From Minisyncoccota bacterium (GTDB lineage: Archaea; Nanobdellota; Nanobdellia; Pacearchaeales; GW2011-AR1): a stretch of DNA of 64,000 bases. Below are positions 3,011-6,957 of this stretch, piece after piece; position 1 is the first letter of the stretch, and each line of letters starts with the position of its first letter. The translations under genes and the position numbers were made by a program. The notes under the pieces were generated by a model that saw only the letters and a list, made by a program, of their open reading frames with translations, was not told where the DNA came from and did no database searches. The DNA is taken from positions 72,289 through 136,288 of the forward strand of contig DAOTCN010000002.1 of NCBI GenBank assembly GCA_035453125.1, in the 5' to 3' direction.

Positions 3011-3316
3011 ATGGAAAATGAAACAATATTTTTACATGTTTTTGGTAATAATCCCATAACTAAAGTTTTAGATTTTCTAATAACCTTCCAGTTATTTGAT
3101 TATCCTCTAACAGAAATAGCAAAAAATTCAGGAGTCAGCTATTCAACTCTTCAGACATTCTGGGATAGATTAGTTGATAATAAAATAGTAATTAAAACAA
3201 GAAGAGTTGGTAAATCGGATTTGTATAAATTAAATACCAATAATCCTGCAGTTAAACAATTAATAAAACTTGATTGGAATTTAATAAAGGGTGCTGAACA
3301 AGAGATAATTAGTTAA
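3011..3316 (+). CDS. Small winged-HTH DNA-binding protein
   Basis: HTH DYPLTEIAKNSGVSYSTLQTFW and wing KTRRVGKSDLYKLN. Confidence 0.75.
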   Translation: MENETIFLHVFGNNPITKVLDFLITFQLFDYPLTEIAKNSGVSYSTLQTFWDRLVDNKIVIKTRRVGKSDLYKLNTNNPAVKQLIKLDWNLIKGAEQEIIS

Positions 3317-4328
3317 CTACATTATTTATTTTCAATCTTAAACAGTTTATTAGTTTATAACTATCTGCCCATTTTGCATAAGCTTGCCAACCTTGAAAAC
3401 TTTCTAAGATTTTTTCCTTAGAAATTTCACTATTTTTAAATAAACTGACTTTGTTAATCATATTTTTTATATTTCTTTTTCTTAATAGTCTAAAATAATA
3501 GTAATTTCTAAAGCCAACAAAATCAATACCTCTTGAAAGACATATAATTCTTGATTTGTCTTTATGTAATTCTAATTTTAATTCTACATTTAAAAATTCA
3601 TTAATTTGCTCTTTCCATATTTCAAGTTGTGATTTTGAGTTATGCAAAATTACAAAGTCATCAACATAACGAATGTAATACTTTACATTTAATTTGTGTT
3701 TGGCAAAATAGTCTAATTCATTAAGATAAACATTAGCAAAGAATTGACTTGTTAAATTGCCTAAAGGCATACCAATTCCCTTACTTTTTTGTCCATTTTC
3801 AAGAATAATTTTTATTAAATTAACAATTTTAATATCATTTATTCTTTGAGTTATAACATTTATCAGAACATTATGATTAACTTCTTCAAAATAATGTTTA
3901 ATATCTGCTTTAAGGCAAAATGCTTCAGATTCTAAGTTATTGGTGACTTTTCTCTTAAACAAATCAAATCTTTTGAGCGCAAACAAATTTCCTTTTCCTT
4001 TCCTGTTTGCACAAGAATCATAAATAAATGTTTTATCAAATATTAGTTCTATGATATTAATCAAAGCATGATGAACTATTCGGTCTCTGAAATCTGCTTT
4101 TGAAATTTTACGAGTTTTTGGATCTCGCAAAATAAATGTTTCTAATGATTTTGGTAAATAATTTTCATTTTTTAGCTCTCTGTAGAGTTGCAATAAATTA
4201 CCTAAAACATCTTTTTCAAATTCAATAACATAATTTCTTTTTGTTTTTCCTTTTCTTGCTTTTCTCCAAGCAAGAATTAAATTACTTTTAGAGTAAACAT
4301 CTTTGTAAAGACTTTTATAAGTTTTCAT
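3309..4328 (-). CDS. DGR reverse transcriptase
   Basis: RDPKTRKISKADFRDRIVHHAL, ADIKHYF, GMPLGNLTSQFFAN (DGR-type LGNxxSQ rather than QGxxxSP), YIRYVDDF, IDFVG. 339 aa with no endonuclease domain. Confidence 0.95.
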   Translation of the reverse strand: MKTYKSLYKDVYSKSNLILAWRKARKGKTKRNYVIEFEKDVLGNLLQLYRELKNENYLPKSLETFILRDPKTRKISKADFRDRIVHHALINIIELIFDKTFIYDSCANRKGKGNLFALKRFDLFKRKVTNNLESEAFCLKADIKHYFEEVNHNVLINVITQRINDIKIVNLIKIILENGQKSKGIGMPLGNLTSQFFANVYLNELDYFAKHKLNVKYYIRYVDDFVILHNSKSQLEIWKEQINEFLNVELKLELHKDKSRIICLSRGIDFVGFRNYYYFRLLRKRNIKNMINKVSLFKNSEISKEKILESFQGWQAYAKWADSYKLINCLRLKINNVVN

Positions 4329-4341
4329 GCCCTAGTTGAGC

Positions 4342-4429
4342 TATTTCAAGCGAAGCATTGGAATTCTCAGGATTCCTGTTGCAATTCAGGTTAGCCCTAT
4401 CTGAATTCGCATTAAACCTCGCGACACTT
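4342..4429 (-). repeat. DGR template repeat (TR)
   Basis: Ungapped alignment to 4743-4830 (offset 401). 19 mismatches, all at minus-strand A. Reads AAY-rich in the target frame (SVARFNANSDRANLNCNRNPENSNASLEI). Confidence 0.95.
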
Positions 4430-4713
4430 GTAGCAAATTCATCATTTAGCACCATATATTCAGATTTTACTCAAAACTTACCCAAGGTTTTTCATTGTTA
4501 CTAACTGTTTATATTGAATTTTATGGCTTTATTAATATTAATTGATATTATTTAACATTTAAAGCACTAATGAATTTACATGTAGCCCAAGTTTCCTAGG
4601 GAATATATGTTAAATTCAAATAGTTTAACAAAATTTAGTTAATCTAATTTATAGATTAAAAAAGAATTATAATTTTATTCTAAATTAACTTGAAAAGTAA
4701 TTTTTCGGCGCGT

Positions 4714-4759
4714 GTGCTTCGCTACCTTCAGTAACTCGCAAATACCCCAAGCGAAGCAC
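4714..4759. promoter_or_regulatory. 10-bp inverted repeat GTGCTTCGCT (4714-4723) / AGCGAAGCAC (4750-4759) at the VR 3' end; candidate DGR cis element
   Basis: Exact reverse complements, GC-rich in an AT-rich context. DGRs commonly carry a hairpin 3' of IMH. Confidence 0.5.
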
Positions 4760-5519
4760 TGGAACTCCCAGGACCCCCGGAGCAATACAGGGCAGCCCAA
4801 CCTGAATTCGCATAAAACCCCGCGACACATTCATCTTTATTTTTTGGTTTAGAGTTCAGTCTCAAAATATATGCTGGAGTCTGATTTATTTTTTGATAAA
4901 CTGCATCTATTTCATTTACATTTTGTGTTCCTAAAATATATTCTAAGTAATCTTTTGGAGAAACTTTTGAAATAAATCCATCTTTGCCTACAAAATCTGT
5001 ATCAATTTGATATTGTTCATTTGGAATTTTATAATTATGAATGACATTATCTTTTCCAGTTGGATTATAGTTTATTCTTGTTAGTGTCATAAGATATTTA
5101 GCTCTCATTTGATTTTTTACAAATTCTCTTGCTTCTTGTGATTCATCTGTATCTAATTTTGATAAAGCATAAAAAGTTGCGTGATGAAGAGGCATGTCTG
5201 CAACATAAAAATCTCCTCTTTCTCTTGCCTTAATTGAATATTCTGCCCAATCATCTTGTGTTTTTTTTATTCCATTATCTAAAAGTGCTTTTGCAAGTCT
5301 AACTGTACAATCTTTTCCTCTATATTTTACTCCATCAATTTCCCAATAGTCTATTGTTGAATTTATGTTAACTGGATAAATATCTGTTTGTGTTTGTGGT
5401 GTTTCTTTAGCTTTTCTTTCAAGTTCTTCTCTTTCTTGTCTTTCTCTTTCTGCTATTCGCTTTGCTACTTCAATCATTCTTTCTCTATTTGAAAATGAGT
5501 TTAGTTTTTGTGTTGTCAT
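4728..5519 (-). CDS. DGR target (variable) protein; N-terminal charged coiled coil, C-terminal VR (CLec-like fold expected)
   Basis: VR lies in the last ~35 codons; N-terminus ERMIEVAKRIAERERQEREELERKAKE. Confidence 0.9.
   Translation of the reverse strand: MTTQKLNSFSNRERMIEVAKRIAERERQEREELERKAKETPQTQTDIYPVNINSTIDYWEIDGVKYRGKDCTVRLAKALLDNGIKKTQDDWAEYSIKARERGDFYVADMPLHHATFYALSKLDTDESQEAREFVKNQMRAKYLMTLTRINYNPTGKDNVIHNYKIPNEQYQIDTDFVGKDGFISKVSPKDYLEYILGTQNVNEIDAVYQKINQTPAYILRLNSKPKNKDECVAGFYANSGWAALYCSGGPGSSSASLGVFASY
4743..4830 (-). repeat. DGR variable repeat (VR) at the 3' end of the target gene
   Basis: Encodes CVAGFYANSGWAALYCSGGPGSSSASLGV; identical to TR except at TR adenines. Confidence 0.95.
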
Positions 5520-5640: not shown

Positions 5641-6957
5641 TTATCCTTTTGGATTGAGCAATTCAGATAGTTGTCTGCTTAGGTCAGTTGGGTTTTGAGA
5701 ATTATATTCAGCAGTTTCTCTAATTACCTCTTTAACTGGTTTCCATCTTTCATCTGTTTTGGATATTTTATCTAAAAGATTGCTTAGTCTTGAATCAGAT
5801 ATTCCTGCATTTGCAAAAACTAATGCTTCTTCAAGTTTAGGGAATTTATCAAGAATGTCTGCTCTTATTCTTGAATTTCTGCCCAAAACATTATCAAAAG
5901 CAGAATAAACATCTCCTCCATTCTCAATATCAACATAAGCTGGAGAAATTGCACCTGAATAAGGAACAGTAAATTTTAAACAGTCTAAAAATAATTCAGG
6001 TTGTTTTGGTTCGTGTCCTCTTGATTCCGCAATCATACTTAATGCTTCACTAAAGGCAATTGTAGAAAAAACTGCTCTTGGTGAAAGAACAAATATTTTA
6101 TTTTCGTCATTATCTTCTCTTATGCCTTCAATATTTGGCCATTTAGTATCAACAGCAATTTTACTATGTCCTGCAACCTTTTCAAGAAAATCCAATCCCT
6201 CTGTTAGATAAACACCTAACAAATTAATTGTAGAATGTCTGTCAGTTGATTTAAACTCTTGATTTAAGGCTAAAATATCTTCTTTAGTAACAGATGAATT
6301 TGAATGAATATCTGCACGAGGATTTTTCTTTCCGCCAAATATTTCATTTAAATCTCTTGCAGAAGGTCTAAAATCTGGATGATCTAACTTTACAATTAAG
6401 TGCATTCTATCTTTTAATGCTCTATCTGAATCAGCAACACCTACATATTATCCATCTCCAAGATTTCCGGTTGCAAATAGAACACTATATCCGTCTGTTC
6501 CAAGATTAACTATCTTACCATTATGAACAAATTTTCCATCTGCAAAATCAAAAAAATAATTTTGAACAATTGGAGGACATCTATTTAACTCATCTACAAA
6601 AAATAAATTCTTTTTTACATTTTCAGTTAATTCTACTAAATCTTTATCAGATACATCAACTCCAGGTTTTAACTTACCGAGATTAATTTGCTTAAGCAAT
6701 TCTGAAGGTTCGAAATCTGGTCTTCCCATTGCATAACAAGAAGAATCTCCGAAAATACTAACTAAATCATTTCCCAACTGTGTTTTTCCTCTTCCAGTTC
6801 CTCCAACATAATAAACATTAAGTTGAGCGATCAGTGGTGCTTTAACTAAAACATCTTTTGCACTATATTCAACTCCACCTAAAGCAATTCTCCGACTATT
6901 AATATAATGTCCGTCATCTAATTTTCTAATTGTCTCTTTTGATCTATCGCTTATCAT
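5641..6957 (-). pseudogene. MoxR/AAA_5-like AAA+ ATPase interrupted by one in-frame TAA (6448-6450)
   Basis: Walker A GGTGRGKT, Walker B FFVDELNR, sensor ATGN. After the TAA the same frame continues YVGVADSDRALKDR-MHLIV into the 5641-6405 ORF; about 438 codons in total. Confidence 0.8.

Follow-up and report, generated by a model that had tools for sequence, protein, structure and literature searches.

The stretch of DNA that we analyzed (64,000 nucleotides, hereafter the window) is part of a 379-kb contig of an 872-kb genome that is 89.75% complete, and carries a genuine diversity-generating retroelement (DGR), in which a reverse transcriptase rewrites the end of a protein, of a tiny DPANN archaeon. 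The element is chromosomal and archaeal, and ribosomal protein genes flank it on the contig. It is encoded on the minus strand as one unit, in which a target gene with a C-terminal variable repeat (VR) is followed by an RT-16 RNA fused to the template repeat (TR) and then by the gene of the reverse transcriptase (RT), and a gene for a MoxR-like ATPase precedes the target gene (Table 1). A sequence-only reading of this DNA had called a DGR and had guessed a DPANN host, and both statements hold: the clade of the RT, the adenine-only differences between TR and VR, the C-terminal VR, the AAY codon design, the IMH/IMH* pair and an inverted repeat present only at VR all agree, and the named relatives are all metagenome-assembled genomes of Woesearchaeota, Pacearchaeota or Nanoarchaeia. 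Related loci were collected with a 10-sequence alignment of the target family, and the same architecture recurs in about 100 assemblies, which are independent and come from many samples. The TR pattern was not found in IMG/VR, and a viral origin was rejected. Scans for promoters and terminators did not rise above shuffled sequences, using models that are bacterial and not applicable to archaea.

Table 1. Features of the DGR locus, with positions numbered within the window
Feature	Position	Strand	Basis or remark
MoxR-like AAA+ (AAA_5) ATPase gene	5641..6957	minus	Pfam AAA_5 3e-7, weak bpMoxR; directly upstream of target
DGR target gene, 263 aa	4728..5519	minus	intact ORF
VR	4743..4830	minus	C-terminal end of target; repeat search, alignment and codon view
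IMH (UUGGGGUA)	4743..4750	minus	encodes L-G-V of the last beta strand
VR-specific inverted repeat (putative cruciform or hairpin)	4714..4759	minus	DNA fold
RT-16 structured RNA (Rfam RF03019), fused to TR 5' end	4425..4601	minus	Rfam covariance model
H1 5' strand, CCCUAG	4596..4601	minus	pairs with 4335..4330
H2 5' strand, CUUGGGC	4585..4591	minus	with junction UA (4584..4583) pairs with 4343..4336
Junction UACAUG, conserved, single-stranded	4579..4584	minus	Rfam consensus and 89 cassettes
TR	4342..4429	minus	ungapped alignment, codon view
IMH* (UUGAAAUA)	4349..4342	minus	within TR
Closing-stem 3' strands, GCUCAA (4341..4336, H2) and CUAGGG (4335..4330, H1)	4330..4341	minus	covariation, folds
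DGR reverse transcriptase, 339 aa, intact	3309..4328	minus	RVT_1 1e-20

TR and VR align without gaps over 88 nt at an offset of 401 when read on the minus strand, and an independent repeat search recovered the same pair. The 2 repeats differ at 19 positions, all of them among the 28 adenines of TR, while none of the 60 non-adenine positions differs. The changes comprise 12 A>G, 5 A>T and 2 A>C, so that the counts given in the sequence-only reading, over the same 88 nt, were reproduced exactly. The boundaries of the repeats are right because extending them by 2 to 3 nt on either side at once adds non-adenine mismatches. The probability that 19 mismatches would all fall on the 28 adenine positions by chance is 7.8e-13. 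That TR and VR arose through misassembly, or by chance duplication followed by biased drift, has nothing to recommend it but the general possibility that exists in metagenome-assembled genomes, and is effectively refuted by this adenine restriction (P=8e-13), by the recurrence of the same architecture in about 100 independent assemblies, and by the length of the contig with its flanking ribosomal protein genes.

Three of the A>G changes lie at the 3' edge of the repeats, where they had been suspected to be differences between IMH and IMH*. This suspicion was right, as they are fixed in the relatives, and mutagenesis therefore accounts for changes at 16 of 25 adenines over a span of 85 nt. The repeat had also been described as strongly diversified; the count behind this description is exact, but the degree is ordinary for the class, in which relatives have 7 to 17 changed adenines per VR. 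The lack of any non-adenine mismatch between TR and VR may reflect recent activity of the DGR. The codon design of TR includes 8 AAY codons, 24 of the 28 adenines occupy codon positions 1 or 2, and A>N changes can reach no stop codon while making about 9e13 protein variants possible. VR corresponds to residues 230–259 of the 263-aa target ORF and encodes about its last 34 residues. The sequence-only reading had suggested a search of the genome for remote VRs, and this search showed that each of the 2 TRs of the genome has its known VR only: nothing further was found with the TR pattern allowing A>N and up to 3 mismatches, or with a lenient whole-genome scan using the full TR and its 5'-50 and 3'-50 halves (≤12% non-adenine mismatches). 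The window locus thus has 1 VR versus 2 to 4 in the relatives. Its nearest congeners are at most ~75% identical, and the cluster of the target protein has a single member.

The difference between IMH (UUGGGGUA) and IMH* (UUGAAAUA) is fixed across all VR/TR pairs of 9 relatives. At these 9 related loci, all VRs end in GGGGU(A/G) and all TRs end in GGAAU or GAAAU. The same motif pair, including TGGGGT, occurs in DGRs of Nanoarchaeota (PMC4372165). In addition, VR is associated with a 10-bp inverted repeat, the left arm of which (GTGCTTCGCT, 4759..4750) is adenine-free except at its first position, and the right arm of which (AGCGAAGCAC, 4723..4714) lies just past the TGA stop codon (4730..4728) of the target gene. 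The right arm holds a GC-GAA-GC mini-hairpin and is not found after TR. Relatives have GC stems of 5 to 6 bp with GAA triloops at the matching place after VR, and the hairpin at the window locus is weaker than these. The inverted repeat is a putative cruciform or hairpin that may mark the homing site.

The RT had been called intact, and it is indeed encoded by a full ORF in which the YVDD and LGNLTSQ motifs align with catalytic and fingers residues of the Bordetella bRT. Its best PDB match is bRT itself (8ub7, E 1e-43, residues 2–329), and it keeps the equivalents of bRT F66, R74, I76, Q187 and D215/D216. PADLOC returned a generic RT match (5e-48), the match to TIGR04416 (2e-41) is below the cutoff of that model, and retron_St85 scored 45.5 bits (5.8e-12) against a cutoff of 235. 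An endonuclease domain was not found in the 339-aa protein by Pfam search or PDB comparison. There is no ORF between VR and TR, and a six-frame search of the 872-kb genome for the accessory protein Avd (PF05635, PF22296) gave no match; an Avd-like gene could lie on the DNA that is missing from this 89.75% complete genome. In a sample of the phylum, PF05635 was absent from 61 of 82 RT-16-positive genomes, and genomes with both had them on a common contig only once. An avd gene is present in ~74% of DGRs, with 26% lacking avd and 29% lacking any accessory gene, and the window DGR matches Architecture A of that survey (Wu et al. 2018).

The 300-nt "spacer" between VR and TR is an RT-16 RNA (RF03019), which fits the full model (positions 1–158) with 74.8 bits, above the gathering score of 50 (E 9e-10). 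The RT-16 motif has been described as lying "near RT genes", perhaps as part of a retron or a DGR, and only RT-10 was linked to a DGR (Weinberg et al. 2017, PMC5737381). Its 3' end meets the 5' end of TR in 9 of 9 TR-resolved relatives and in a second DGR of the same genome; the loci with this adjacency include L003, L005–L008, L010, L013, L014 and the second DGR (L149). Beyond the earlier description, RT-16 is thus the 5' leader of DGR template repeats. Neither this leader nor the closing helices described below appear in the reports on Nanoarchaeota DGRs (PMC4372165 and PMC5006420).

In about 90 independent cassettes, 2 long-range helices supported by covariation form between the 5' end of RT-16 and the 12 to 25 nt just 3' of IMH*. 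For H1, cognate strands were compared with permuted ones, which gave a z of 23.8 and a mean length of 10.4 bp (72 cassettes). For H2, analyzed in anchor-defined registers, 85.6% of positions were paired versus 67.9% in shuffled combinations (0/500), with 160 versus 59 doubly changed cells (0/500) and many G.U pairs, and slid-register controls were 27% to 47% paired. Both the minimum free energy (MFE) fold and the centroid fold of the window RNA contain the 2 helices. The 3' strand of the closing stem stops 1 nt short of the RT start codon. Since the helices are also found in the second DGR, where the RT gene is not just 3' of TR, they are not an RT translation-control feature. The local P1 hairpin of the Rfam model was rejected as the main conformation because pairing of the same 5' strands within it is barely above background (z=3.6, 4 to 5 bp), and it may be an alternative conformer; the base of the annotated P1 is better explained by long-range pairing, in 2 helices, with the sequence 3' of TR. 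Because H1 and H2 join the 5' end of RT-16 to the segment 3' of IMH*, RT-16 and TR form one closed, retron-like RNA domain. In this domain, UACA is a conserved and unpaired junction located across from the 3' end of the template, UACAUG being opposite the GAAA of IMH* (GGAA in most relatives), and P2 with GCUAC is located right at the 5' end of TR. Altogether, the locus is very probably best explained as a complete and probably functional DGR, belonging to a distinct class whose members lack Avd and are common among DPANN (Nanoarchaeia-type) archaea.

In such a DGR, the RT would copy TR into cDNA, misincorporating at adenines, and the cDNA would replace VR in a direction that depends on IMH (GGGGU) as against IMH* (GAAAU) and on the VR-only inverted repeat. 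Each replacement would rewrite about 16 residue positions on the binding face of the target. As to how synthesis starts, we tentatively suggest that RT-16 and TR together constitute a self-contained, retron-like, cis-priming template RNA. The DGR could then consist of 2 components, the 339-aa RT and one RNA, and would need neither Avd nor a 3' spacer, the layout being a circular permutation of that of Bordetella. The RNA may do what falls to Avd and the 3' spacer RNA in Bordetella, namely recruit the RT and position the template:primer duplex, which would be the closing stem itself. By analogy with Sp A56 of BPP-1, the UACAUG junction is a candidate cis-priming site, where an adenosine of UACA would give the priming 2'-OH and cDNA synthesis would start just 5' of the IMH* AA. 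Initiation at this point would explain why these 2 or 3 adenines of IMH* are never transferred to VR.

It is also quite possible, though less likely than not, that RT-16 of a functional DGR only recruits or halts the RT, and that synthesis starts from a nicked target, as in the TPRT of group II introns, or from a separate primer instead of UACA. The RT is phylogenetically near the group II intron RTs (TIGR04416, below cutoff), but this 339-aa enzyme has no endonuclease domain. P2 and GCUAC are found at the TR 5' end, where a polymerization stop is expected; at the other end of the template, however, the closing stem places the 3' end exactly across from the conserved junction, in a geometry that fits both the template:primer duplex of BPP-1 and the a1/a2 stems of retrons. 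The IMH* adenines that are never transferred would also fit initiation just 5' of them.

The cis-priming arrangement can be compared with 2 known types of element. Like the DGR of Bordetella phage BPP-1 (mtd-VR, avd, TR, Sp, brt), the window DGR shows adenine-specific transfer from TR to VR, an RT that is a full-length homologue of bRT and shares its fingers and palm residues, a C-terminal VR, IMH/IMH* and a VR-only inverted repeat. Unlike BPP-1, the archaeal genome yielded no Avd gene, the locus lacks the 140-nt spacer 3' of TR, with just 13 nt between TR and the RT ATG, and all the structured RNA (about 175 nt, RT-16) is 5' of TR, which is a permuted layout. The archaeal target is also not a CLec of the Mtd/FGE type by sequence or Foldseek, and the element is chromosomal and not from a phage. 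With the retron msr-msd, the window RNA shares a closing stem made from the 2 RNA ends, a conserved unpaired nucleotide beside this stem on the 5' strand, and a structured RT-binding domain followed by a template whose 3' end abuts the stem. In contrast to retrons, the window RT belongs to the DGR clade, and the product would serve mutagenic homing into VR.

To our knowledge, DGRs are the only natural systems of targeted protein hypermutation in prokaryotes, and all the mechanistic knowledge of them that we are aware of comes from one Avd-dependent phage element. DGRs are being developed as tools for directed evolution. The window locus and its about 100 relatives define a compact Avd-less DGR class, the orphan Rfam motif RT-16 gains a function, and the covariation-backed RNA architecture provides a testable model for helper-free DGRs. 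If the cis-priming, two-component arrangement is true, this would be the minimal natural DGR and would supply the mechanism for the homing without Avd whose existence in DGRs lacking Avd was inferred by Wu et al. 2018.

The target protein has a charged N-terminal helix followed by a globular domain, with no evident signal peptide or transmembrane segment, and belongs to an unannotated, DPANN-only family of 446 representative clusters. That it appeared uncharacterized is borne out by the absence of any Pfam, NCBIfam or PDB sequence match. PADLOC did not annotate it, no PDB chain matched at E≤10 with the single sequence or with a 61-sequence profile, and comparison of the 61 family members with Pfam produced nothing consistent and no FGE-sulfatase or lectin match. 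AF2 models reached pLDDT values of 83.9 and 90.5. With the full-length model, Foldseek gave no match at E≤1e-3 in PDB or BFVD; with the trimmed-domain model (pLDDT 90.5), the top matches were CTLDs, none of which reached E≤1e-3 (best 3whd_A, probability 0.75, E 0.08, TM 0.49; also 2ls8, 6inu_B and 8k8h). Mtd, TvpA and AvpA were not among the 50 PDB matches listed for the trimmed domain. The expectation of a CLec fold thus has weak backing, in that C-type lectins head the matches without reaching significance, and the binding face of the target may be C-type-lectin-like.

Nanoarchaeota (DUSEL4) DGRs and their target AvpA (PMC4372165; PMC5006420, PDB 5IOO) likewise come from a DPANN host and have TGGGGT versus TGGAAT or TGAAAT, an IMH that encodes the final G-V strand, and a GRA-triloop hairpin after VR. 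Their targets are also orphans with a fold that is hard to predict and with mammalian C-type lectins as the nearest structures. However, the window target is not detectably similar to AvpA in sequence (no PDB match, E≤10), its alignment contains neither GxxVVVYAH nor HPxxxPFxG and none of the 3 conserved motifs of AvpA was found, its VR sits at the extreme C-terminus, and the hairpin is past the stop codon.

The MoxR-like ATPase is a conserved partner gene of the target, since intact homologues of 410 to 480 aa in one ORF immediately precede the target in L003, L006, L007, L009, L011 and others. The cytoplasmic-looking target would work with this ATPase. A MoxR-type AAA+ ATPase coupled genomically to a DGR-diversified binder, possibly of lectin fold and without export signals, is also found in MoxR-vWA ternary conflict systems, which have DGR-diversified FGS/CLec sensors (PMC7159879; PMC10907252). 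Unlike in those systems, neither a vWA nor an effector domain turned up in the target or the neighboring genes of the window and of L003/L006, the ATPase and the target are each encoded by a small gene of their own, and the host is a unicellular, genome-reduced archaeon. The large unannotated DPANN family, together with its MoxR-like ATPase, is thereby pointed to as a diversified binder, of relevance to host or invader recognition by genome-reduced episymbionts. PADLOC gave a weak match to DolB (1e-5).

At the window locus, the ATPase reading frame contains a single in-frame TAA (6450..6448), and the module could therefore be starting to decay. Decay does occur in this DGR class, as seen from the split RT genes of L005, L010 and L011. 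It is nevertheless improbable that the cassette is a recently silenced relic that no longer homes and has a frozen VR in a decaying module. The lone ATPase stop could be a sequencing error, and the reduction of the post-VR GC hairpin to GC-GAA-GC, compared with the 5- to 6-bp stems of the relatives, is compensated by the 10-bp VR-only inverted repeat. The single VR, against 2 to 4 in the relatives, would also suit a relic, but TR and VR differ at 0 of 60 non-adenine positions, the RT ORF runs its full length and includes every catalytic motif, and TR, IMH/IMH*, RT-16 and the 2 closing helices have stayed intact.

The second RT-16 DGR of the genome lies on another contig. Its target shows no similarity to the first one and was rejected as AvpA-like, having no PDB sequence match. 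In this DGR the RT gene is upstream of its target, VR, RT-16 and TR, and the RNA carries the H1 and H2 closing helices too.

The window locus is a genuine DGR whose parts all lie on the minus strand (see the table). Ungapped alignment of TR and VR over 88 nt gave 19 mismatches (12 A>G, 5 A>T, and 2 A>C), all 19 at the 28 TR adenines and none at the 60 non-adenine positions (P = 7.8e-13), exactly as the sequence-only reading had counted them. The core of the pair was recovered independently by a repeat search, and because non-adenine mismatches appear 1–3 nt past both ends of the alignment, the boundaries set in that reading are correct. Its suspicion that the three changes at the 3' edge are differences between IMH (the VR 3'-end motif) and IMH* (its TR counterpart) was borne out: since every VR of nine related loci ends in ...GGGGU(A/G) and every TR of the same loci in ...GGAAU or ...GAAAU, these three A>G changes are, judging by the repeat ends, fixed differences. 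The same pair has been reported for Nanoarchaeota DGRs (PMC4372165). True mutagenesis amounts to 16 of 25 adenines (9 A>G, 5 A>T, and 2 A>C; P = 2.6e-11); relatives carry 7–17 changes per VR, and therefore "strongly diversified" is accurate as a description of this VR but ordinary for the class. Read in frame, the TR contains 8 AAY codons, and codon positions 1–2 hold 24 of the 28 adenines; about 9e13 protein variants, and no stop codon, are reachable from it by A>N change. Searches of the genome with TR patterns, a check that had been proposed earlier, found no remote VR for either of its two TRs, and the TR pattern was not found in IMG/VR viral contigs. After each VR, relatives carry a 5–6-bp GC stem with a GAA triloop, of which the window has GC-GAA-GC only; its VR-side inverted repeat is not present after the TR.

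The RT was rightly called intact. Among solved structures it is closest to bRT, the RT of the Bordetella DGR (8ub7; E 1e-43; residues 2–329 against 3–318), and the full-length ORF keeps the equivalents of bRT F66, R74, I76, and Q187 and the YxDD aspartates. Three related cassettes have split RT genes: in L005 and L010 the frames overlap (frameshift), and in L011 an in-frame stop divides two halves that share a frame. Decay, recoding or an assembly error could account for these splits.

Table. Coordinates of the DGR features (window positions unless a contig or locus is named)
Feature	Position	Strand	Remarks
RT ORF	4328..3309	minus	339 aa, intact; RVT_1 match
TR	4429..4342	minus	ungapped alignment to VR, offset 401
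VR	4830..4743	minus	ungapped alignment to TR
RT-16 (RF03019)	4601..4425	minus	74.8 bits (gathering score 50)
Helix H1	CCCUAG 4601..4596 / CUAGGG 4335..4330	minus	
Helix H2	CUUGGGC+UA 4591..4583 / UA+GCUCAA 4343..4336	minus	
VR-side inverted repeat	4759..4750 / 4723..4714	minus	10 bp; adenine-poor VR stretch / just past stop codon
Target ORF	5519..4728	minus	263 aa; VR encodes last ~34 residues
MoxR-like AAA_5 ATPase gene	5641-6957	minus	in-frame TAA 6450..6448
Second DGR of the genome	C1:117600-120250 = L149 8635-11270		independent of window cassette
Second DGR, VR	L149 10659-10747		
Second DGR, RT-16	L149 11019-11153		
Second DGR, TR	L149 11155-11243		9 A-only mismatches
Second target family, members	L003 4525-5232; L005 8395-9189; L006 7025-7705; L008 1674-2516; L014 9139-9945		
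Split RT genes	L005 9466-10625; L010 9722-10806; L011 3159-4322		

Between the target stop and the TR lie 300 nt without any ORF of at least 50 aa; besides the TR frame, the sole listed ORF there has 48 aa and overlaps the TR on the opposite strand. Likewise, a six-frame search of the whole 872-kb genome (89.75% complete) gave no match to the models PF05635 and PF22296 of the accessory protein Avd. The TR is preceded by RT-16, one of the structured RNAs (RT-1 to RT-19) originally described just as near RT genes, of which RT-10 alone was linked with a DGR, being the Bordetella spacer located 3' of the TR (PMC5737381). In the related loci L003, L005–L008, L010, L013, and L014, all with a resolved TR/VR pair, the end of the RT-16 match and the first TR base are at most a few nt apart; L011 and L012 also carry RT-16. 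The same adjacency occurs in the second DGR of the genome, where the order is RT, target with internal VR, RT-16, and TR, so that, in contrast to the window cassette, the RT precedes the target. This RT (467 aa) is 57% identical to the first, the IMH and IMH* are TCGGTATA and TCGGAATA, and the 270-aa target, which has a GGA-loop hairpin inside its ORF, had no sequence match in PDB and was not similar to the first target. On the metagenome contig L119, which matches the TR pattern, an apparent coding sequence takes the place of the RT-16 leader and the post-TR ...CAGGAC motif is kept; this contig either breaks the RT-16/TR rule or has another arrangement.

Among 301 sampled genomes of the phylum, RT-16 was found in 82 (70 of 224 genera; 1–4 copies each, and exactly two in the genome studied here, one per DGR) and PF05635 in 64. 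Both occurred in 21 genomes, on the same contig only once and there 8 kb apart, while 61 of the 82 RT-16 genomes lacked any PF05635; in the window's own taxonomic family the counts were 8/14 for RT-16 and 0/14 for PF05635. This distribution indicates that RT-16 cassettes form a DGR class of their own, which lacks Avd and occurs alongside Avd-type DGRs in this archaeal class. DGRs lacking Avd (Architecture A, 29% of DGRs; Wu et al. 2018) were known before, as were DGRs in DPANN archaea and the RT-16 motif. To judge from the literature that could be searched, the new findings are RT-16 as template 5' leader, its mutual exclusivity with Avd within cassettes, and two covarying closing helices with the permuted, retron-like RNA layout that they create.

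These long-range helices, H1 and H2, enclose RT-16 and the TR. They were analyzed in cassettes from a metagenome-contig scan with a TR-specific pattern (116 stretches, 106 complete cassettes, 96 of them <95% mutually identical, 89 usable). In H2, the strand directly 5' of the conserved junction UACA pairs with the strand directly 3' of IMH*, and the helix also takes in the junction UA and its partner, the terminal UA of IMH*; because independent motifs anchor both strands, the register was not fitted to the structure. Positions 3–7 were paired in 93, 94, 94, 93, and 84% of the 89 cassettes, against 72, 89, 78, 56, and 46% with permuted partners, and register shifts gave 22–48% versus 84% in register. 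Covariation was counted over 81 distinct anchor-defined segments, excluding three with a visibly mis-set IMH* anchor: paired cells (85.6% versus 67.9±1.0 shuffled), doubly changed cells (160 versus 59±7), and covariation score (0.544 versus 0.240) were each unmatched in 500 shuffles, slid controls gave 27–47%, and 9 of 10 pairs changed on both sides. The many G.U pairs assign the structure to the sense RNA. H1 joins the extreme 5' end of RT-16 to the next segment downstream and stops 1–30 nt short of the RT ATG; in 72 of 89 cassettes it spans 7 or more contiguous bp (mean 10.4 bp; cognate versus permuted partners, z = 23.8), with many fully compensated variants such as GCCUUAGAAU/AUUCUAAGGC, GUCUUGAAGA/UCUUCAAGAC, and CCUGGAU/AUCCAGG. 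In L012 and L013 its 5' strand lies 20–30 nt upstream of, just outside, the Rfam match. The local hairpin base drawn by Rfam uses the same 5' strands as H1 and H2 with marginal support (4–5 bp, z = 3.6), and the RF03019 model probably needs 5' and 3' extension to cover the post-TR strands. In the window, where 13 nt separate the TR from the RT start codon, MFE and centroid folds of 4608..4322 both recover H1 and H2. Both helices also occur in the second DGR, whose RT gene lies upstream; they are therefore part of the template RNA rather than a control of RT translation. The closed domain runs from closing stem through unpaired conserved UACAYG, P2-closed RT-16 core, GCUAC, TR, and IMH* back to closing stem, the topology of retron msr-msd RNA. 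We hold the DGR identity and this RNA scaffold with high confidence.

In Bordetella, the TR 3' end pairs with spacer nucleotides 47–56, spacer A56 primes via its 2'-OH, synthesis starts at TR G117, a neighboring upstream:downstream duplex is the stop, and the structured RNA, entirely 3' of the TR, binds Avd and bRT (10.1101/2023.10.23.563531). The survey in that work took in Avd-containing DGRs plus five archaeal genomes only, and just 40 nt upstream of the TR, and was therefore blind to the RT-16 layout. By analogy, H2 would be the counterpart of the template:primer duplex, an adenosine of UACA the cis-primer, and P2/GCUAC at the TR 5' end the stop, with RT-16 replacing Avd and spacer in holding the RT. 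The G immediately 5' to the IMH* adenines would be the start of cDNA synthesis, which would explain why these adenines never reach the VR. Cis-priming from UACA is a tentative proposal, somewhat less probable than even, and target-primed cDNA synthesis is a live alternative. The locus makes Avd-independent DGR reverse transcription directly testable.

The target family comprises 446 representative clusters at E<=1e-3 (272 at E<=1e-10), and its named genome loci all come from Woesearchaeota, Pacearchaeota or Nanoarchaeia MAGs; the 61 members searched gave no consistent Pfam match. Variation among homologues clusters at TR adenine-containing codons within an otherwise kept scaffold (ERVAxFxAxSxRAxLxCxRxPxxSxxSLGV). 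AlphaFold gave confident models, with a pLDDT of 83.9 for the full-length target and of 90.5 (pTM 0.90) for residues 47–263. [quoted passage not shown] The nearest structural neighbor of AvpA, whose fold was not predictable, is CLEC5A (PMC5006420), an outcome that the lectin-like matches of the target resemble; PDB sequence and profile searches found no similarity between the two sequences. The target has no signal peptide or TM segment.

Directly upstream of the target, in the window and in many relatives, is the MoxR-like ATPase gene. Since the relatives' homologues are uninterrupted ORFs of 410–480 aa at the same position, ATPase and target form a conserved gene pair; the TAA in the window copy either arose very recently or reflects a sequencing error. 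MoxR-type ATPases are coupled to DGR-diversified lectin-fold sensors in conflict systems of multicellular bacteria (PMC7159879, PMC10907252), by analogy with which ATPase and target may form a module for intracellular recognition; neither a vWA nor an effector domain was found in the target or in the neighboring genes of the window and of L003/L006. This broken ATPase and the weak post-VR hairpin would fit a fresh relic, a reading we consider improbable given the zero non-adenine TR/VR differences and the intact RT, TR, IMH/IMH*, RT-16, and helices, which argue for a working element or one that stopped very recently. No congener is closer than 75% identity, and the cluster of the target protein contains one member only. 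The closest target homologue (protein P0002, L004 71-940; 59% identical) has a longer scrambled C-terminus in place of the VR scaffold, and no RT, TR or RT-16 was found on its contig, which suggests a family member gone from DGR control. Related cassettes usually diversify 2–4 genes, among them members of a second target family (about 225–280 aa, no Pfam match). This family shares with the window target family only the last ~35, VR-encoded residues; thus, one TR serves two different scaffolds.
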